Below, piece after piece: positions 23,416 to 61,410 of a DNA stretch of 64,000 nucleotides. Every line of letters begins with the position of its first letter. The first letter of the stretch is position 1. The DNA is taken from NCBI GenBank assembly GCA_965198115.1, contig OZ240241.1:7200001-7264000 (forward strand), written 5' to 3'. The notes under the pieces were generated by a model. The model saw only the letters and a list, made by a program, of their open reading frames with translations, did no database searches and was not told the DNA's origin. The position numbers and the translations under genes are program-made. The stretch is from Candidatus Latescibacterota bacterium. GTDB taxonomy: Bacteria > Latescibacterota > UBA2968.

Positions 23416-24998
23416 CTGGGCAAGACCCTCTGCGTACTTCTCTTCCTGCTCGCACGGGTCCGGAATACTGCACTCCCCACGCGGGTCATTTACATCGTCG
23501 ACAGACGCGCCATCGTAGATCAGACGGCGACCGCAATCCGGACATGGATTGAACGCATTGCCGAGTTGCCAGAACTCGCGGGTGTGCTCGACGCGAGTTC
23601 GGCATTTTCGTCCGATCTTCCCGTCCAGCTCGGCATTCTGCGGGGCGGCTTAGCGGACGATGGGGAGTGGCGAATCGATCCGGCCAGACCGGCGGTCGTG
23701 GTCGGCACTGTCGATATGATCGGTTCCCTCCTGATGTTCTCAGGTTACGGTGACGGACGATCACGCCGGCCGATGCACGCGGGACTTCTTTGCCACGACA
23801 GCCTCGTCATGCTGGACGAAGCCCATTTGTCACCGGCGATGGGGGTACTCATCCACACCATCAATCGGCTCCAAGGCCACCGGAAGTTCCAGACCATGAC
23901 GCTGTCGGCGACGAGCACCGATATCGATACCGAGAGCGTGTTTCAACTCCTTGTCGAGGACAAGGCCAATCCTTCAGTTCGTAGTCGCCTTCACTCGGTC
24001 AAGAGACAGAGTCTCCATCAGGTCGAGAAAACCACTGATCGGATCGGTCGCATTTGCGAGGTGGCCACCGCTCATGAATCTGGCTCCGTCGCGGTGTTTA
24101 CCCGAAGTGTCGCGGATGCCGAGAAGATTGCCGTGAAGCTGATCAGTATGCTCGACGATGGCTCCGAGCGCGTCGCACTACTGACGGGGACGCTCCGCGG
24201 AAAAGAACGCGCCGAGCTGGCAAATGGAACGGTCTGGCGGAGCTTCCTTCCGAATCGGGACCGTGACGCGAGTACAGCCTCCGTCTACCTCGTGATGACC
24301 TCGGCCGGCGAAGTCGGAGTCGATCTGGATGCCGATCACGGTGTCATGGATCTCAGCACTCTCGATTCGATGATTCAGCGCGTTGGCCGAGTGAACCGGA
24401 TGGGCCTGACTGAGGCGGACGTTGCGGTCGTCTTCACGGGGCAAGAGGCGCGGGAGTCACCGCAAGCGCCGAAGATGCACACCCGAAGACTTGCTGCGGC
24501 TCGTACGAAAACACTGGAAGAACTTCGGCGGCTTCCCGACCTTTCTCCAGCGACTCTGGGAGGCCTCGACAAGCAAGTCCTTGAAGAGTGCTTCGTGCCG
24601 CCTTCCCGGCCCGCGCGACTGCACTCGGAAGTGGTCGAGGCATTCGCGGCGACGTCCGCGACACTGCAGCTCCCCCATGTCTCGATCTATCTGCGCGGAG
24701 TGTCGGATCAGCCCGACCCGCCAGAGAGTTTCCTCCTCTGGCGCTGGGACGTGCCGCATCTAGTCCGGCTCGGCAGCGATGCGGCTGCGCAGGCGATCGC
24801 TTTCTTCCGGCCGAGCGCCGATGAGGTCGCTCGTGTCCCGGCACGCCTTGCGAGGGACTTGGTCCTGTCCGCGCTTGAACGTCAAGAGGGGAGGGGCTTC
24901 CTCTGATCGTGGTCGAACCGGGAGGCGATGTCTGTGCTATCTTCTTGAAGCGCAAGGACGAACTCTCTTCGCTCAACTACGCGACTGTTGTTCTGCCA
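23416..24998 (+). pseudogene. cas3: type I-G (I-U) CRISPR helicase Cas3 fragment, lacking the extreme N-terminus and C-terminal HD domain
   Basis: LGKT, RVIYIVDRRAIVDQ, LRGGLADDGEWRIDPARPAVVVGTVDMIGS, LDEAHL, TSAGEVGVDLDAD, QRVGRVNR; frameshift near 24900. Confidence 0.85.
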
Positions 24999-25048
24999 GA
25001 AGAAATAGGACGACTGGTAACGGCAATCGGAGTGTGGTCAATAACCCC
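24999..25048 (+). repeat. ~50-bp direct repeat, copy B
   Basis: Matches 16440-16490; lies where cas3 similarity appears to stop. Confidence 0.9.
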
Positions 25049-28000
25049 GCACATGACTCATTTGGACCGGGCAGTCTGCCAAGGGCTTTCCCGATCGGAA
25101 GCAAAAGCTGGCGATTGGTCGAGGGCGGCGACCACCGCACTCTGGAGGACCTCCTCGGTGGGTGCACCGCTACGGCACGATGGGGCGGTGAGGAGGGCAA
25201 GCAGCAGGAGAGGTCGTCCCGTTCGGTGAGCCTCGTCAGGCGACGGACGCCCCCGCCCGATGGCTGCCGACTCCACGGTCGCTTCCAAGCACCCTGGTTA
25301 CACGGTGCAACTGATGGAAAGTAGCGGGAAAGGGGCCGTACGGCGACGGTACGTGCTCACTCGAGCGCCCGCGAGGCCCGGGATGGGAAGCGTTCCGGTC
25401 GTCCAGGACGCCGGATGGTACGACCCCGCCTTGCATCCTCCGGCCCGTCGCGTCCATTCCCTGGAAACCGTGTCTCCTACCACCGCACGGTGGCCCGGCC
25501 CAGGACCCCGTTGTCCGTGCCGCCCAGCAGCGGGTTCTCCCGGCGCTGCGCGTCGACGCCCAGCTCGAAGCCCAACGAGTCCCGCTCCAGCAGGGTCATG
25601 CCGTAGCCCAGCCGGTAGTCCCGCCCGTACTCCGAGGTCGCGACCCCGAACCGCGGCGTGCCGACCAGCCGGCTCCCGACCGGCAGCCCGTAGCCCAGTT
25701 CGGCCTGCAGGCGGTTGCCAGCTGACGCGCCGCCGTGCGCCATTCCCGCCATCGTCTCGCACCCCCACAGCGCCTCGGCTCCGCTCGTAGCCTGTCCGCC
25801 CCAGGACGGGGTCACTCGCCAGAAAGAGCCCAGCGGCGTCTGGGGCGTCGGGTTGTAGCTGAACGACACCGACACGCCCCGCTCCCGGAACCCTTCCGCC
25901 TCGTGCACCAGCAGCATCCGGACCCGCACGTCGGCCGACAGTCCGCTCAGAGTGTCCGATACGATCAGCCCGCCGCCGATATCCACACCGGCGCCCGTCT
26001 CGGCGTCTCCGCCGTCGCGCCGCAGTCCGACCTCCAGTCTGGGCTCAAGCGACAACCTGCGCTTGATGCTGTAGCCGCGCGAGGCCTCCAGCCCGGTCCG
26101 GAAACGGGTTACCGTGGCTGCGGTCGCCGCCAGCCGGCCCGCCGGACCCTCCACGCCTTCGATGCCCGTGCCGACCCACAGCGCATCGGCCTTGAAGGCC
26201 AGCCCGAAGCCACCCACCACCGAATCCGCCAGCTCGCCCCGCAGGCCGCCCGCCGCCATGGCCATCGACAATCCGCTCTTGAGCGTTGTTCCCTCACCCG
26301 GTGTCAACTACAGCGCGCCCTTGCCGTATCCGGTCACGCCCCACAGCGTGATCCGGTCGGTCACCTTGTAGCCCAGCCAGGGGTAGAGGCCCGTCACCGA
26401 CGAGGTCACCACGCCGGCGTCGGCTCCCGAGTAGCCGCCCCGCCCCCGGCTGTGCGCCAGAGACAGGCCCACCAGCAGCGGACCGGTCGCATAGTCGGCG
26501 CCGAACATGGTCGTGCGACCCCGGCCGTCGAGCGACAGATCGCCTTCGCGGCCATAGAACTGCGACTGCACCCCCCGGCTCCAGAACGACAGGATGCCGC
26601 CGCTGCCGGTCTCGCGGTTGAGCGCGAAGGACGAGCCGGTGAGCAGGCTGTCGCCGCCGAATCCCATCGAGCCGAGTCCCATGTCGAGCCGGCCGCCGCC
26701 CGAAGGCCCCGGCCTCCCGAGCATTGCGCCGCCAGCCGGCGAGCCGGCCATCGGAGTGTCAGGGCCCGCACCGTATCGGTTCGCGCCGCCCAGGCCGCCG
26801 AGCCGGTTCAGGAAGCCAAGCGCCACCTCGCGCTCCATCCCCCGCCGCAGCTCCCGGCCCGCCACCCGGCCCTCGAAACCCGTCCGGCGCGGCGCCTGGA
26901 TCCGTTCCTCCACCTGCTCGACCACCTGCACCGCCACCGTCCGCCCGAACCGTGCCATGAACGCCTTCGGCAGCGGGTCCCGGTTCTCGATCGTCCCGGT
27001 CGCCTCGCCGTCGGTCAGCCGGCCCCCCACGGGGTTCGAGAGCCGCAGCGTCAACGTCTCCTCGCCCTCGTCGTGGGAGTCGTCCAGCACCGCCACCTCG
27101 ATCGTCTTCGAGGTCTCGCCGGCTGGAAACCTCAGCGTGCCGCTGGTGGCCGTGTAGTCCTCCCCCGCCGTCGCCGTGCCGTTGGCCGTGGCGTAGTCCA
27201 CCGTCACCGTGCCGCCCGCCGCGCGATCCAGCGTCACCCCGAAGGCCAGCACCGCGCCGTCGTCTTCTTCCACCTGCGCATCGGCCACCGAGATGGCCGC
27301 CGCGACGGCCACCGTCGCCGTCAGCGAATGCGACAGCGGTCGTCCGTCGCCGGTGCACACCGCGCCGCTCGCGGCGCAGTCCCGCGTCTCCGGCAACCGG
27401 ATCGTCAACGGCTCCGGCGCCGGCGCGACCGTCATCTCCCACAGGTCGCGGCGGCCGTCCACCCGCCGCGCTCCGGTGATGTCGCCGTTCGTCAACGTGA
27501 ACGACGTGTCGCGTAGCGTCTTGTAGCTGATCCTGATCTCGTCGCTGAACTCCACCCGGAAGCGGAACGTCCCCTGGCCGGCGTGCTCGCTCGGCATGCC
27601 GCTGAAGCTGGCCGTCAGCGGCTCCGCCGCCGCGGCGACGGCATCGGTCGCCGCGCTGGTGAGGCTCTCCTCGTTGCCGGCATCGTCGATGAAGCTCACC
27701 CGGACCTTCAGCTTCTTGCCCTCGTCGTCGGCCGTCGCCGTGTAGGTGGATCCGGTCGCTCCCTGAACGTCGGTGTCCGTGCGGATCCACTGGTAGGCAA
27801 AACTCGCGTTGTCCAGCCCGTCGGCGTCGGAGATGCCCGACGTCGAGGCGGTCAGCTCCTCGCCAACCTGCGGCGTCCCGCGGATCGCCGGCGCCCCGGT
27901 TGCCGCCGTGTTTCGCTCCGCCTCGGCCGCCGGACCGGCCACCGTTGCCGACGGGCTGTTGGTCAGCGGCCGCCGGTTCTCCCCCTTGGCGCAGATCGCC

Positions 28001-31000
28001 CCGGACGTCGCGCAGTCCCGCCCGCCCGGCAGCTTGATCGTCACCGCCCCGGCCCCGTCGGGCTGCACCGTGATCTCGAACAGGTCGCGCCGGTCGTCCA
28101 CCCGCGTGCCCCGCGTCACCCGGCCACCGGTCACCACGAATGCGTCCTCGCGCAACGCCCGGTAGCTGATCCCGATGTCCTCGCTGAACGCCACCCGGAA
28201 GCGGAAGGCGCTCTCGCCGTCGTGCCCAGCGGGCACGTCCTCGAACGCCGCGGTCAGCGCGGACCGGCTCGCGTCCTGGACATCGCCCAGGACGATCGTC
28301 AGCAGCCCGGTGGACAGCTCCGTGCCGTCCGCCGTGCAGATGGCGCCCGCCTCGGCGCAGGCCCGCCCCACCGGCAGCTCGATCTCGATATCGCCGGCGC
28401 CCGACGGGGTCACCGTGAAGCGCCACAGGTCATCCCGGCCGTCCACGCGCGCGGCGTCGGTCACCGCGCCGCCGGTCACCCTGAGCGCGTGGTCGCGCAT
28501 GTCGCCGGCGGCGCTCTCGAGCTCCCGCACCTGCACCGTTACCCCCGGCAGCGACTGCTCGAAGTCGTAGTTCGATTGCGCAGTGCCCTGGGTGTCCGTC
28601 GTCGTGCCCGAGGCCTCGTGCTCCAGCCTCGCCGTCCCCGACGCCGACGCGGCGGCGCGCACCGTCACCGTCTGGCGCCGGAACCAGTTCTCCTTCGTGA
28701 ACCGGATGGCCGGCGACGCCGTCACCCCGGCCGTGTCCGAGCTCGCCTCTATCGTCAGCGGATTCGTGGTGGTGACCCTTGAGTCGAGCCCGGCCATCAG
28801 GCGCACCTGATAGGTCGCCGTGCCTCCCGCCGGAACCTCCAGGACCGCGTCCGTCTCGCCGCCCGCCACCTGGAGCTTCCTGCGCCCTACCCGGTCCACC
28901 CGCAGCTCCGTCAAATCCGGCAGCACCTCGAGCTCGTCGTAGGGTAGCGAGCGCAGCGACGGGTTCTTGTACAGCAGCAGCTTCTCGAGCGACCGCAGGC
29001 CCGAGAACACTCCCGCCGGCAGCGACCCCAGCCGGTTGTTGTTCAGGCGCAGCGTCTCCAGGTCCGTCAACCCGTCGAACACCCCCGCCGGCAGCGACCG
29101 CAGCCCGGTGTCGGCCAGGTCCAGCTCGACGAGATTCCACAGGCCCTCGAAGTCGTCCTGCCGCAGGCGCATCGTGAACGCCGACTCGGTGGACGGATTG
29201 CGGCGCAGGTCGAGCGACGTCAGCTTCGCCAGCTCCGTCTCGGTCACCGCGCCGCAGCCGCCCTTGTAGCTGTGGCGGTACTTCAGCAGCGTCAGGATGC
29301 GGTCGCGCACGCGCGCCGTGCGGCCGCAGATGCCGCGGACCGTGTAGCTGCCCGTCTCGACCTCGTTCGAGGCCGGCGACCAGGCGCTCGCCTCCGCACG
29401 GTACAGCGACCGTACGCGCACCCGGTGGGGGGTGGTTCACCGCCAGCCCGGTGATGGTGGCGGTGGTCCCGGCGCCCTCGTGGGGCCAGTCGGTCCACGC
29501 CCCGCCTGTCTCCCGGTACTGCACGTCGTAGCCGGTCAGCGCCGCGGCGGCGCCCAGCGCCGGCTCGGTCCAGCTCACGTCCAGGCTCGTGAGCGAGCCG
29601 TGGGTCGCGGTCAGCTCCGGACGCACGGGCGCTTCCGGCGGCCCATCGTCGTCGCGGATGGTGATGGTATGTTCGCGCGCGTCGGAGCTCGTTGTCGAGA
29701 TTTCGAACACGATGGTCTCGTCCGCCTCGCGATCCGCGTCGTTGACGATACACGGATGTTGAAGCGATGCCGCGCCACGTAGGCCGTCCTGGCCGCATTG
29801 GGGGAGAACGCCGAGACCGGCACGATGGCGATGAGTACCGCGCCGCTGATCGGTGGGGGTGGGGTGTAGTCGTCGCCGGACGTGGCTGTTTCCGCCGGCC
29901 GCCGCCGATACAATACGTTCGCGTCGATCACCGGGGCGGTGTTCTGCCGGGTCGTGAGCGTGACGGTCACGGCCGCCGTCCCCGCGCTCTCGCTCACCTC
30001 CGCCGGTGCGTCGATCGCCATGTCCTGGGGAAGGTCCTCATCGTCGTTGATGATGGTCAGAGTCACGTCGTCGGGGTCCGCTATGGCCGCGTTCGACACG
30101 GCGCCGGAGATCGTCACCAGGTCGGTCGGCTCGGGGTCGTCTCTGTCGACCACCCGGACGTTCACAGTCCCGGTGCTCGCGGTGGCGTTCGCGGCGAAGC
30201 TCAGCACCCGGTTGGTGCTCAGCGTGAAGTCGTCGGCCGTCGCCGGCGCCACAGGGTCCGCCGAAACCGTCACCGTGAAGGCTACCGGCGAGGCCGGCGA
30301 CGCCGTCGCCGTCACCGTCACGTTGCCGACGTTCTCGAAGACGAGGCCATCCTCATCGCTGAGCTGCAGCGTCACCTCCAGGGGCGGGATCGTCACCGTG
30401 CCCCGGACTTCCATTCGGAGGTTGTTCACCACATTCATTGTACTCCAAGAAACTCCATTCCAATGATGCCTTCCATTGCGGATGCTGAATCCTTGCGTAG
30501 TCGTTTCACTGTTGGACTCGGTTATTGCAGCCGTGTAGTTACCGCTGATATCGCTTCCCGCGTCAGTCAGTACGACATAGTATTTTGTATTCGCCGCGAG
30601 GCTGAGGCCGTCGCCCGGAGCGGTGAACGTACGGTTGCCTGCGGCTGCCGGGTTGTGTCCGATCGGATCCGCAGGGTTCGTGAGCGTGATCAGTCGGGTT
30701 CCGGGATTTCCGGAACTGTCGTCAGCGTGAATCGCTGCGTGAACTACAGAGCTGCCGTTTTTTTGGGGCAAATTCAGTACGACGCTTGTGAGCGTGTACC
30801 CGGCCCCGTTGGACCCCGTCGTGAATTGCTGGGCAGCTCTATTCTCCCTTGACACTATCCCGGGAATAACCTCTTCCCCTCCGAGTCGAATAGAGATGGT
30901 ACCGTCGTGCTGTTCCCCAATATTCGAGACGAGCGCTATCTCCTGCGCCTGGCTCTCTCCGGTCGGCAGCAGCACTGCGCACGCGACCATCAGCGCGTAG

Positions 31001-31108
31001 CCGAGTGCACGCGCAACGATCCCGCCGCGGCCGGCGGCGGTAACGACGGTTCTGGAGGGGGGATTTGCGCCCCGGCGGGGCGGGATCAGGTCAGGCCGTG
31101 ATGGCGGG

Positions 31109-31322
31109 CAACAGCACTCGCGCGCGTGAGATGAACGATATACTTCTATGGTGCCATCTACATTGGATTCCAACAGCACTCGCGCGCGTGAGATGAACGA
31201 TATACTTCTATGGTGCCATCTACATTGGATTCCAACAGCACTCGCGCGCGTGAGATGAACGATATACTTCTATGGTGCCATCTACATTGGATTCCAACAG
31301 CACTCGCGCGCGTGAGATGAAC
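31109..31322. repeat. tandem 62-bp repeat (4 x 28 bp separated by 3 identical 34-bp segments)
   Basis: caacagcactcgcgcgcgtgagatgaac starts at 31109, 31171, 31233 and 31295. Confidence 0.95.
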
Positions 31323-31328
31323 TTACAC

Positions 31329-31529
31329 GCTCGGTGCTCGGTGCTCGGTGCTCGGTGCTCGGTGCTCGGTGCTCGGTGCTCGGTGCTCGGTGCTCGGTGC
31401 TCGGTGCTCGGTGCTCGGTGCTCGGTGCTCGGTGCTCGGTGCTCGGTGCTCGGTGCTCGGTGCTCGGTGCTCGGTGCTCGGTGCTCGGTGCTCGGTGCTC
31501 GGTGCTCGGTGCTCGGTGCTCGGTGCTCG
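31329..31529. repeat. heptamer microsatellite (GCTCGGT)28 plus a partial unit
   Basis: Perfect units 31329-31524, then GCTCG. Confidence 0.97.
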
Positions 31530-31864
31530 TCTATGATAGCCGAGTCAGAACGCTCGTTGGATGTCAAGACTTTTTTCGAGTATCCCATAACTTTTCCACC
31601 TCCGAGTCGTTGCAACCGGAAACCCGCACGCGCCACGCCAGCGCGCAGTATATCACTTATGTAACTTATTATAAATAATAACCATCTATTGCATAGACAT
31701 AACTAAACCTTGGTAACTAGATGCAAGCTGGTTCTGAAGCTGTGAATCGCATCTCGTGGGTAGCCGCTTAAGGCGCACGAGGCACGAATATCCTGGGAGA
31801 TCCGCTGGCTGATTAGCGACAATTAGAACTCCCACTTGGCGACCACTATAATTCCCGTTCTGCG

Positions 31865-32202
31865 GGTCGTGCGGCGGTGGTTGGGGCGCGTGGGCGTCGA
31901 GACGCTTCTTTAATTGAGCCGGGCAGCCCGTGGGAGAACGCTACAACGAGAGCTTCAACGGCAAGCTCAGGGACGAGCTGTTGAACGGAGATCTTCTACT
32001 CGTTGGCGGAGGCGGCCGTGCTGGTCGAGCAATGGAGGCGCGAGTACAATACCGTCCGACCCCACAGCGCCTGCGGCGGCTTTCCCCCGGCCCCTGAGGC
32101 GATTAAGCCGTCGCCCTGGTTCCTGAGGATGCCCGTCCTTCACGGCCCTCCACAGGTGCTGGGACTAACATAGGATGTGGTACCGCTCTTGGGGGCAGGT
32201 CA
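31865..32202 (+). mobile_element. IS3-family remnant (transposase C-terminus and right end)
   Basis: Frameshifted IEPGSPWEN.YNESFNGKLRDELLN...WRREYNTVRPHSA; ends ...ggggcaggtca. Confidence 0.8.
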
Positions 32203-42283: not shown

Positions 42284-42360
42284 CAGCGAGAAGATCGATA
42301 ACTTCCAAGCGTCTGAGGATTGACGGCGCTCAGCAGGGTACCCGGCTGGACCGCCGCTAG

Positions 42361-43989
42361 CCTGAATTATGCATAAAAAAGGTAGTCTCCTTGTACAAGT
42401 GTTTGTTTTTCCCTACATTAGGGCTGACACATCAAAACAACACTTGGAAGGAACTACCGTGATAGAACCTAGTCAGATCCGGTTACCATTCGCAAGCATT
42501 TCGGGCAAGGTAGTTGAGGCTGATTTTGCCGGTGGCGCCGTCAGGAGTGACGGTGGAGTTCTGTTGCTTCGCGCCCTTGAGTCTCAGATGGGATTGATCG
42601 CCAGAATGGTAGATGCTTTGCGAGATCGTCGTCACCCAAGCTATATCGATCACACGCTTTTGGATCTTGTGAAGCAGCGTGTTTTTCAGATCGCTTGCGG
42701 CTATGAAGATGCCGTCGATTGTGATGATTTGCGCCACGATCCGGGCGTCAAGGCTGCCTGCGATCGGCTTCCTCTTTCCGGTCCTGATCTCGGGAGCCAA
42801 TCAACGATGACACGACTTGAGAATGATGTGCGACGCTCGGATTTGTATCGGCTCGCACGGGCTTTTGTAGACGGGTTCATCGCATCGTATGACCAGGCAC
42901 CCCCAAGCATCATTCTCGATATCGACGACACGGATGACCCAACGCACGGTGCGCAACAATTTTCACTCTTCAACGCGTATTACAATGAACACTGCTATAT
43001 GCCGCTACATATCTATGAAGGCCAAAGCGGCAAGCTCATTACGACGATCTTGAGACCCGGGCATCCGACGAACGGTAAACAGGTCGTTTCTATTCTCAAG
43101 CGCTTGGTGGAACACCTACGCGGATCTTGGCCAAACGTGGAGATCATCGTTCGCGCAGACTCAAAGTTCAGCTCACCAGAGATGCACGATTTCTGCGAAG
43201 ACAACGGTATCTACTACGTTCTGGGCCAGGGCGCCAACTCCAAGCTCAAAGCGGCTGGACAAAACCTGATGGACCAAGCGCTACGTCTGAGCGAGCATAA
43301 GGAGACGATTCGCTTGTTCTCATCCTTCTCATATCAGGCTGGCACCTACCGGCAGCCTCGCCGGATCATTCACAAGGCTGAAGTCACAAACGGCGAAGCA
43401 AATCCAAGATACCGCGTGACCAATTTACAGAGTAATCGAGACGGCTTTATCTATGATCGTATCTACTGCGCAAGGGGACGCACGGAAGGCTTCATCAAGG
43501 ACCACAAAACATTCCTTCACTCCGATCGAACATCGTGCCACAAGTTTGAAGCCAACCAGTTCCGACTCTTTCTACACAGTGCTGCATACGCCTTGCTTCA
43601 CGCACTCCGATCACAGGGACTCAAGGGCACCGCGTGGACCAAACCTCAGGTCAACACGATACAGAACCGTTTCCTCAAAATCGGCGCGAGAGTCATTGAA
43701 AGCGCACGAAGAATCCGATTCCATTTTCCAACATCGTATCCACTCAAAAACGTCTTGGTGTCAATCATCACCAGGCTCGAAACGAACACGCAGTAACAAC
43801 GCCGATCTATACCGGGGACAGCTATGTACACGTCGCAAAACAACACCTGTTCCGGACGAAAATCGTGACTCTTGCGACTCGTAGAGACCGCTTACGGGAC
43901 CTTGGACATCCGAAGAAGCCGAGAACAAATCCTGTGCGTGATCACATCACTCCAAAACAACCTAAACTCAAATTCATGCATGATTCAGG
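42361..43989 (+). mobile_element. IS1380-family element
   Basis: IRs cctgaattatgcat / atgcatgattcagg; CTAG on both sides. Confidence 0.93.
42459..43796 (+). CDS. IS1380-family transposase
   Basis: SDGGVLLL, GYEDAVDCDDLRHDP, ILDIDDTDDPTHG, VRADS, YCARGRTE, FEANQFRL. Confidence 0.93.
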   Translation: MIEPSQIRLPFASISGKVVEADFAGGAVRSDGGVLLLRALESQMGLIARMVDALRDRRHPSYIDHTLLDLVKQRVFQIACGYEDAVDCDDLRHDPGVKAACDRLPLSGPDLGSQSTMTRLENDVRRSDLYRLARAFVDGFIASYDQAPPSIILDIDDTDDPTHGAQQFSLFNAYYNEHCYMPLHIYEGQSGKLITTILRPGHPTNGKQVVSILKRLVEHLRGSWPNVEIIVRADSKFSSPEMHDFCEDNGIYYVLGQGANSKLKAAGQNLMDQALRLSEHKETIRLFSSFSYQAGTYRQPRRIIHKAEVTNGEANPRYRVTNLQSNRDGFIYDRIYCARGRTEGFIKDHKTFLHSDRTSCHKFEANQFRLFLHSAAYALLHALRSQGLKGTAWTKPQVNTIQNRFLKIGARVIESARRIRFHFPTSYPLKNVLVSIITRLETNTQ

Positions 43990-44436
43990 CTAGGGGTTGG
44001 CCGACCTGGTTTTCGGAGGTGAGGCAGATGGTTTCGCCTGTCGTTTCTTCGAGCAGACGTGGACAATGTCGGTGGCGTGGTCGTCGAAGCCGAAGTGAGC
44101 AACGTAGATCTTCGCACCCGCGCGAATCGCGAAATCAAGAGCTCGAACCGATTCCGCGACGACTTGATCGACAGCCGCCGACGCGGAATCACCGTAGGGC
44201 AGCCCGAATGGCCCGTGCATGGCCACAACGGATACGCCGTCGTTTCGGCAAGCCGCGAGGAGCTCTTCGACCTGTTCACTATCGTGATAGTCAAAGCTGG
44301 GTGGGACGGAGGATATTTCGATTTTTGAAATACCGACCGACCGAACAGACGCGATCTGGCGGGCACCGAGACGATCGCCTTGGTAAACGGCTGTCGATAG
44401 CGCCATTCGCGATCTGAAGTCAACGGGAAAAGCCAT
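43990..44436 (-). pseudogene. sugar-phosphate isomerase/epimerase (TIM barrel), truncated by IS1380
   Basis: VGISKIEIS, VAMHGPF, GAKIYVAHFG; frameshift near 44055; cut at the IS end. Confidence 0.7.
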
Positions 44437-60416: not shown

Positions 60417-60473
60417 TGGGTACCTTGAATGCTGTGGTGATCTGGATTTCAGTTGAGAGTTTTAGGAGGACCG

Positions 60474-61304
60474 ATGGCTGACACGTGGCGTCCGGCCGAA
60501 CCGGATATCGAAACGATTCGCAGAATAGCGCCCGATCCGATGAAAGCACTGGCCGATCTCGAGATTCCGGCGTGTGTGTTCCGAAGTGCGTACCCCGTCT
60601 CAGACTGCGATGGTCTGATCGATCGGTTCATCGAAATGGGGTTGATCGACGATCCAGCTACGTGGGACCCCGTGACGGGACGAAAACGGATCGATATCGG
60701 CACGAGTCTGGCTCAGCGCGGATCCAACCAGGATGCCTTTTTCGCCCATTCAGCGGAGACTCACAAGCTCTACGAGACGTTGTTCGATGGGTTCGAACAG
60801 CCCGTGAAGACGATTTACGACGGTTTGGCCGCTCTCGCGCGGGACAAGAAGGTCGTGACCGCCTACGAACCGGATGGACGGCAGTATGGACCGGCGATCT
60901 TCCGCATTCACTATGAAGGCCACCGCTACGCACCTCATATCGATCACGTCACGTTGCGGGAAAAACGGTTCGACTACGCCGTCACCCGGTTCACCCATCA
61001 ATTTGCTGGTGTGCTTGTGATGCGAAACACCACACGCGATGACACGGCCACGCAGTCGATCATGCATCGCTGTAGGTGGTCACCGGCGGTCCAACCACAC
61101 ATTCGGGGTGGAACGTTCTACGACTATGCCAGGGCGCAGGGCATCGATTCTACGCAGGTCGACATGGCACCGGGGGACCTCTATTTCTTCAACACAGGGT
61201 CGATTCACGAGGTGCCGGCACTGGAGGGAAACGACGCACGTGTCGTTCTCGCCGTCTTTATCGGCTATTCGGAGGATGATGATGAGATTTTCGTGTGGAG
61301 TTAA
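60474..61304 (+). CDS. 2OG-Fe(II) oxygenase superfamily protein
   Basis: HxD (PHIDH), PGDLYFFN...HEV, downstream R; SD aggagg. Confidence 0.7.
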   Translation: MADTWRPAEPDIETIRRIAPDPMKALADLEIPACVFRSAYPVSDCDGLIDRFIEMGLIDDPATWDPVTGRKRIDIGTSLAQRGSNQDAFFAHSAETHKLYETLFDGFEQPVKTIYDGLAALARDKKVVTAYEPDGRQYGPAIFRIHYEGHRYAPHIDHVTLREKRFDYAVTRFTHQFAGVLVMRNTTRDDTATQSIMHRCRWSPAVQPHIRGGTFYDYARAQGIDSTQVDMAPGDLYFFNTGSIHEVPALEGNDARVVLAVFIGYSEDDDEIFVWS

Positions 61305-61410
61305 GGCCGGCTTCGCCGGCCAGTCGGCCGTTGTCCGTTGTCCGTTGTCCGTTGACCGGGAAAACCGTTCACCGGCATCGGTGCCGGACAGAGTGCGAGG
61401 AGCCTGAATA

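Follow-up and report, generated by a model that had tools for sequence, protein, structure and literature searches.

The adhesin-like gene on the minus strand of the window (64,000 nucleotides of contig OZ240241.1 from a Candidatus Latescibacterota bacterium) is a pseudogene whose 5' coding region probably retains a slipped-strand switch of the reading frame, inherited from a gene family of this kind. According to this reading, to which we give a probability of about two in three, the heptamer tract is the switch, while the adjacent 62-bp array is a private scar of an insertion and duplication. The initial annotation had taken both arrays together as a two-tier switch, with the heptamer as a fast toggle and the 62-mer as a slower lock. 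The heptamer tier is supported by the leaders of the family, which carry repeats at the same codon; the second tier is not supported.

The 5' region and its two arrays

The features of the gene are listed in Table 1. Several elements had been proposed from the sequence of this locus and were recovered: the Shine-Dalgarno sequence ahead of ATG 31588, the 28-fold 7-mer, the 62-mer and the stop of the leader product in the second unit (TAG 31222). Both arrays are perfect (100% matches). The heptamer units begin 60 nt past the ATG, after codon 20, with 28 perfect units at 31528-31333 (28.7 copies according to TRF). The four 28-bp units of the second array (31322-31295, 31260-31233, 31198-31171 and 31136-31109) are identical to each other, as are the three 34-bp segments, and the period is 62. 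The 8.4-Mb genome has 11 perfect heptamer tracts, of which this one is the longest, and no other perfect array of period 62; thus, the repeats are not due to chance.

Table 1. Features of the adhesin-like gene, with positions in the window.
Feature	Position	Strand	Remark
Candidate sigma-70-like promoter, TTTATA-17-TG-n-TATACT	31647..31675	-	About 50 nt 5' of leader ATG
Shine-Dalgarno sequence GGAGGT	31598..31603	-	9 nt ahead of ATG 31588
Leader codons 1-20, MGYSKKVLTSNERSDSAIID	31529..31588	-	Homologous to N-termini of P0151, P0123, P0050
Heptamer tract, (GAGCACC)x28 + GAGC	31329..31529	-	Reads HRAPSTE; predicted frame switch
10-nt linker including TAA (31325-31323)	31323..31332	-	
62-bp array	31109..31322	-	Four 28-bp units and three 34-bp segments
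TAG closing the 122-aa leader product	31220..31222	-	In second 28-bp unit
Extended signal-peptide region (RARECCCPP...LLPTGESQA)	30946..31108	-	Cleavage site predicted from homologues
Choice-of-anchor R domain	30400..30852	-	NCBIfam NF041539, E 2.4e-28, above cut-off
FN3, LRR and Calx-beta domains	26986..29623	-	Pfam PF00041, PF13855, PF03160
Lesion 1: +2 nt near 29752, leading to TGA 29613-29611	29611..29752	-	Homologue alignments
Lesion 2: +1 nt near 29436, end of FN3 domain	29430..29440	-	
Lesion 3: in-frame TAG in C-terminal domain	26308..26310	-	Identical in paralog L001
Rest of conserved C-terminal domain, ends ...ATVRW	25477..26307	-	

The candidate promoter is weak (one match in the scan, against 0.4 +/- 0.7 in shuffled sequences). 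The paralog (L001) also has a similar-looking extended -10. The leader codons themselves contain TTGACA (31567-31562) and TATCAT (31538-31533), spaced by 23 nt. Potential starts downstream of the tract are GTG 31179 and TTG 31173, both devoid of a Shine-Dalgarno sequence, and ATG 30990, which is 12 codons before the cleavage motif and falls within the predicted hydrophobic part of the signal-peptide region. The search against Rfam gave no match. An integrase fragment at 31810-32070, 5' of the promoter, has about ten diverged copies in the genome; by its motif, we take it to be of the IS3 type.

Reading frames were tabulated for zero to six segments combined with 27 to 29 heptamers. The gene is ON only with zero segments at n=27 and with one segment at n=28 (mod 3), and the one-segment allele is open in frame. 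With two to six segments it is OFF at n=27, 28 and 29, so that the three segments present here block every heptamer phase. The arithmetic of the initial annotation (ON with zero or one segment and the matching heptamer phase) is correct.

The heptamer tract and its relatives

The homologous protein P0050 has a similar leader, which is followed by (SRAEP)14 in frame. A search with its N-terminus retrieved 65 proteins. The tract is located within the first 80 residues in 32 of them (one being a bird protein), is internal in 25 and is absent from 8. Nine proteins have a leader like that of our gene and continue from residue 19-20 with (SRAEP)n, in frame with the adhesin. One of these sequences, P0151, reads MDFSKKGLTSNERFDSAII-(SRAEP)6-LSPPRARECCCPP and is nearly identical to our gene in this region; P0123 and P0151 continue with ...RARECCCPP and lack the 34-bp segment. 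Where a cleavage motif is visible in proteins with an N-terminal tract, there is mostly no Met between tract and motif (17 of 22). In-frame alleles are favoured by the way in which these proteins were ascertained, and their GAGCC unit is deduced from the peptide; at the DNA level, GAGCC was seen directly in L014, L043 and L051. A search for proteins with HRAPSTE in frame gave 14 matches, none with adhesin domains. The N-terminus of P0058 shows RERERERER behind a short leader, which suggests a (GA)n tract at the repeat position of the family.

Nearly all proteins with an internal (SRAEP)n (23 of 25) are type IIG/DrmMI-like or type ISP restriction-methylase enzymes (e.g., P0121, P0122, P0127, P0130, P0134, P0135, P0138, P0139, P0141 and P0145). 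Their tract precedes a variable C-terminus and is found around residue 1100-1130 or 1340-1400. Because it lies deep inside the gene, it can act on the reading frame only, and we consider it a candidate for phase-variable methylation specificity.

At the DNA level, the analysis covers the nine of 32 loci that have a homologous 5' end (the other 23 were dropped) and five loci from searches with the leader DNA. These searches detected the leader in 4/121, 2/151, 0/151, 0/5 and 0/5 genomes. Three loci (L045, L047 and L049), which matched in the upstream sequence only, were dropped. The exact leader pattern had no match in genome contigs. Its degenerate form was found in one of five genomes, this being L014 itself; the one metagenome match to that form (L052) was rejected as a chance match inside a reverse-transcriptase-like ORF. 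The 32 loci are assigned to taxa that include Ca. Palauibacter, Longimicrobiales, Acidiferrales, Azotimanducaceae, Nitrospirales and Alphaproteobacteria, lineages that we take to be sponge-type symbionts.

The search of other surface genes for 5' tracts, which had been recommended, revealed non-triplet units at the same codon position in homologues: GAGCC, CCGAGCA (which is the unit of our gene), GAGAGCC and GAGCGCC. Among the homologues, the number of units varies from 1 to 28, and the phase varies as well. Two of the six repeat-bearing leaders are in frame with the continuation native to their gene (L014 and L023), and four are out of frame (L009, L043, L048 and L051). All six intact repeat-less leaders are in frame from the upstream ATG (L010-L013, L016 and L022); these loci are not independent, since five share one leader and one lineage. 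The count of six excludes decayed repeat-less leaders, namely those of the paralog L001 (out of frame), L044/L046 (out of frame, gene replaced) and L050/L056 (in frame as far as the h-region, broken thereafter). In L043/L053, whose leader is the closest to ours, the 953-aa body is unbroken but out of frame with the leader, and its only downstream start is a GTG devoid of a Shine-Dalgarno sequence and located inside the h-region. A full-length ON product is possible in L053, L009 and L023. The Shine-Dalgarno sequence and the ATG are kept in place across phyla; GGAGG is found at an equal distance before the ATG in paralog L001 and in L014. ATG 31588, assigned as the start in the initial annotation, is homologous to the N-terminus of intact members. 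Of the seven repeat-bearing loci examined, three, including our gene, have a broken body, and a fourth has a broken signal region.

Two further kinds of repeats were noticed near related genes. Poly-C tracts are found 5' of related adhesin genes from Dehalococcoidia (L017:2871-2882, 12 residues; L018:5220-5235, 16 residues) and may represent a second kind of switch. A divergent ORF-like sequence with (CGCT)3.8 occurs upstream of the repeat-less leaders L010, L011, L013 and L022; in the first three, it is about 300-350 bp 5' of the adhesin start.

If the tract is a frame switch, translation would start at ATG 31588, from which 20 codons run into the heptamers, a layout shared by the homologues. 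Gain or loss of units by replication slippage would then bring one third of the alleles into frame with the signal peptide, as in opa. One feature expected of an opa-type switch is present, a long perfect repeat with a unit that is not a multiple of three (7 bp x 28.7). Another is lacking in this copy: an ON allele does not give a full-length protein. It would stop at 565 or 588 aa and miss the FN3, LRR and Calx-beta domains as well as the C-terminal domain.

The main rival of the frame switch is a 5'-UTR rheostat. Here, the leader would mainly be a promoter (TTGACA...TATCAT), the tract would begin at the transcription start and tune expression in the manner of hmw1A, and gene callers would have produced the in-frame leaders of the databases by extending the genes. 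The leader is indeed without constraint at the protein level (pN/pS 0.8-1.6 in five comparisons); all four differences from the leader of paralog L001 are nonsynonymous. In most leaders, TTG-ACA and a TAnnnT-like box precede the tract, a trend to be read with the caveat that loci were picked partly by the TTG-ACA/TAnnnT motif. I-I, I-L or I-M, which a TAnnnT-like box would encode, is the end of many unrelated leaders. L023 has TTGGAA-17-TAATAT directly 5' of its tract; downstream of the tract, both L009 and L023 possess an ATG of their own. In our gene, however, the spacing of 23 nt is noncanonical (16-18 nt would be expected), and the candidate from the promoter scan, even if weak, is located 5' of the Shine-Dalgarno sequence instead. 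The preservation of the Shine-Dalgarno sequence and the ATG across phyla and the occurrence of the repeat in the middle of restriction-methylase genes also speak against the rheostat. In the RARECCC subclass (our gene, L043, P0123 and P0151), the downstream ATG is replaced by GTA or TTA. We consider the rheostat unlikely.

The heptamer tract could also have grown neutrally by background slippage after the death of the gene, never having been a switch in this copy. Nine of the ten other heptamer tracts in the genome are outside long ORFs, so the host expands heptamers anyway, and five tracts have a CCGAACA-type unit, one base off that of our gene; on these grounds, growth after gene death is conceivable. 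It would also fit that paralog L001 has a single heptamer unit, and an enrichment of intergenic heptamers is described for bacteria in the available excerpt of PMC4692102. Against neutral growth, the tract is found at the repeat position of the family, and CCGAGCA x17.9 precedes an intact 2006-aa homologue (L009) in another lineage. We regard neutral growth as rather improbable and retain the inherited frame switch as the preferred reading. Perfect heptamer tracts amid ordinary genes are found on G000:C1 at 4973808, 6568369, 2184609, 5471589, 6705103, 5177341 and 5236800; among the G000:C1 tracts, apart from the five of the CCGAACA type, there is one CCTCCTG x18.4, which ends directly at an ATG.

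No variation in copy number was seen in the read contigs. The heptamer depth is 75x against 24x expected, a figure confounded by other organisms, and it reaches 330 in X3, where the adhesin gene is almost uncovered. Twenty runs, RNA runs included, had small word shares (7-9%), which are no evidence of expression or habitat.

Gene body, lesions and origin of the 62-bp array

With its signal peptide and its choice-of-anchor R, FN3, LRR and Calx-beta domains, the gene is predicted to code for an adhesin-like surface protein. NCBIfam matches to LRR effectors were below threshold and reflect the LRR alone. The C-terminal domain has no match in Pfam or NCBIfam; from its terminal aromatic motif, which is presumably the mark of an outer-membrane beta-barrel, we predict that it is such an anchor. 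The GC content is 70% in the gene and 58-59% in the genome. As the leader DNA is found in none of 40 genomes related to this one, the gene was likely acquired horizontally.

The initial annotation had named real downstream lesions as a sign that the gene is simply dead, and such lesions were found: two frameshifts and an internal TAG. Since an ON product would end prematurely at these lesions, this gene copy is a pseudogene. Lesion 1 appears as a 2-nt gap against all nine alignments shown (seven distinct loci); it is not bridged by a read contig among the contigs listed. Lesion 2 is bridged with 0 differences by a record from run X1 (29286-29727) and one from run X2 (29194-29727). These two runs represent one sample, which may be the source of the assembly, and they therefore test for assembly error, not for generality.

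Lesion 3 is shared with the paralog L001 (G000:C1:7455939-7462447), which is itself broken and a pseudogene. Its last 2.26 kb are 98.8% identical, TAG included, due to a recent duplication or to conversion. Its leader is 86% identical and out of frame, with one heptamer unit only and a single 28-bp unit that is directly followed by the tail.

An IS1380-like fragment is located directly upstream of the paralog. The window contains a DDE_Tnp_1_4 element (42355-43995), which we assume to be of the IS1380 type; the genome has dozens of copies, complete or partial and nearly identical, several being interrupted by other elements. A helicase C-terminal domain is part of a region (24000-24998) of which at least 999 bp are 100% identical at G000:7515140; the region is adjoined by a REP-like element of about 53 bp (24999-25051) with 11 other matches. 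At 60453-61304, the window codes for a homologue of the WelO5-type carrier-independent halogenase (Pfam PF22814, E 5e-17), with a short heptamer tract just after it, at 61328.

Inflation of the 62-mer by the assembly had been raised as a concern and is contradicted by the contig data, which likely come from the source sample. A unique contig ends at 31138, precisely where a repeat loop must break the assembly. The 92-nt loop contig has depths of 38.6 and 26.7 against 11.9 and 9.05 for the flank, i.e., 3.2x and 2.95x; three segments should give 2.97 and two segments 1.97 (a rough measure). The more general possibility of an assembly artefact, with inflated repeats and spurious frameshifts, could invoke that lesion 1 and the junction between the arrays are uncovered among the contigs listed. 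The position of the contig break, the approximately threefold loop depth, the bridging of lesion 2 and the presence of the TAG in two genomic copies argue against it. An artefact is largely refuted for the 62-mer and for lesions 2 and 3 and is extremely improbable overall.

Among the loci examined, only this copy has the array. Its 28-bp unit is normal coding sequence, found singly and without the segment in L043 and in paralog L001. None of 12 loci has a second repeat (direct repeat of at least 14 nt within 400 nt behind the tract). The 34-bp segment has 38% GC inside a gene of 70% GC; its best match in the genome is 23/34, and none was found in viral contigs, metagenome contigs (both scanned for exact matches) or phage records. 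An inverted 21/34 match at 30883 was discarded, this level being reached 64 times genome-wide. Among 1.84 billion representatives, the segment peptide matched only the ORF of this window and one unrelated repeat protein. Because the segment is unmatched and the unit is single in homologues, we infer an insertion of 34 bp with a 28-bp target duplication that was later amplified. A foreign piece would have entered in this way, and misalignment between the direct repeats would then have multiplied the 62-bp period.

It is tempting to speculate on the source of such an insertion. Type I-E CRISPR systems have a 28-bp duplication and a 33-bp spacer, and off-target integration by Cas1-Cas2 in an earlier host, with later amplification, would resemble the sizes of unit and segment (28 + 34 bp) and the AT-rich insert. 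Two genomes of the same family have arrays with a 61-bp period, and their repeats start with GTTCATC, in common with the 28-bp unit. Off-target integration is described in the excerpt available for 10.1101/148544. On the other hand, the genome has neither Cas1 nor a CRISPR array, no other scar of the 28+34 geometry was found genome-wide, and the period is 62 rather than 61. The repeat-likeness of the unit is not exceptional, being equalled at 33 of 152 sites in the gene, although 3% of shuffled sequences reach it, and no protospacer was found in viral contigs, metagenome contigs or phage records. We view a CRISPR-derived origin as doubtful.

Whether the two arrays form a functional AND gate that was selected as such can be judged from these results. 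The frame arithmetic holds, the one-segment allele is open, both arrays are perfect and reversible tandem duplication has a precedent as an off-switch in pneumococcal cap3A (as summarized in the part of PMC11163986 seen). Against this, the gene has three lesions further downstream, the second repeat is present in 0/12 loci and the 34-bp segment is found nowhere else in the sets searched. The depth is that of a population with about three segments, and among the contigs listed there is no joint of the kind expected for a collapsed allele, a weak point in that contigs drop rare variants. Collapse to zero segments would be irreversible. Given the lesions and the lack of segment and second repeat in homologues, the AND gate, with the 62-mer as a slower lock, is unsupported and very unlikely. 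A bolder variant is a long shot as well: a spacer-like piece with its 28-bp duplication might have produced a real two-rate AND gate, in series with the heptamer, before the gene decayed, with intact sister alleles of zero or one segment persisting in the population or in other hosts. In that scenario, the insertion possibly came from off-target Cas1-Cas2 in an earlier host.

Comparison with known systems

Literature searches by title and start of abstract, in largely non-subscription literature, retrieved no paper on this system, either for repeats or phase variation in sponge symbionts or for two coding repeat tracts in series. The comparisons below refer to the accessible portions of the cited papers. 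Novelty had been attributed to the AND-gate arrangement, yet the occurrence of two repeats on one adhesin gene is already known from sabA of Helicobacter pylori, with a CT repeat in the 5' CDS and a T-tract at the promoter (PMC4081817). There, an on/off frame switch is combined with a transcription rheostat on a live gene, as far as the excerpt goes, whereas both arrays are in the reading frame here, the second is private and the gene is broken.

In cap3A of Streptococcus pneumoniae, the gene is switched off by a tandem duplication within its ORF, which could be reversed (PMC11163986, citing Waite 2001, in the part available). The 62-mer likewise is an in-ORF tandem duplication with an off effect. 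It differs in that it includes 34 bp of foreign sequence and in that reversion would not give a full protein.

Neo-CRISPR loci arise from off-target spacer integration (10.1101/148544, citing Nivala 2018, according to its accessible text). They share with our array the repeat-insert-repeat geometry, a repeat-sized duplication and a spacer-sized insert. In contrast to them, our array has three identical inserts, the genome contains no Cas1 or array, the repeat-likeness of the unit is not exceptional among the sites of the gene and no protospacer was found in the sets searched.

In hmw1A of Haemophilus influenzae, a heptameric SSR is located downstream of the P2 promoter (PMC8262952, available excerpt). 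In both cases, a heptamer tract heads a giant adhesin gene. The control of hmw1A is graded and acts outside the reading frame, as described there, while our tract has a Shine-Dalgarno sequence and an ATG upstream, and its subclass is devoid of a good downstream start.

The tract likely works like that of the Neisseria opa genes, where (CTCTT)n is part of the region coding for the leader peptide (PMC3960869, in the section accessible). As in opa, the unit is not divisible by three, and the repeat is part of the 5' coding region of a gene for an exported surface protein. Unlike in opa, the unit has 7 bp (5-7 bp in the family) and is placed ahead of the signal peptide, after a leader of 20 codons; the protein is a giant Calx-beta/FN3 protein, switching is predicted from sequence alone and the copy is a pseudogene. 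What the sequence comparisons suggest is an opa-like contingency leader on a pseudogene, next to a private insertion scar, with no sign of an evolved lock.

With a further unit type and a near-identical series of in-frame and out-of-frame members (our gene, L043, P0123 and P0151), the gene contributes to the case that giant surface proteins are randomised by repeat switches in the style of pathogens in sponge-type symbionts from several phyla. The locus also shows a route by which such surface genes decay. A more promising lead is the (SRAEP)n repeat inside the type IIG/ISP restriction-methylase genes.
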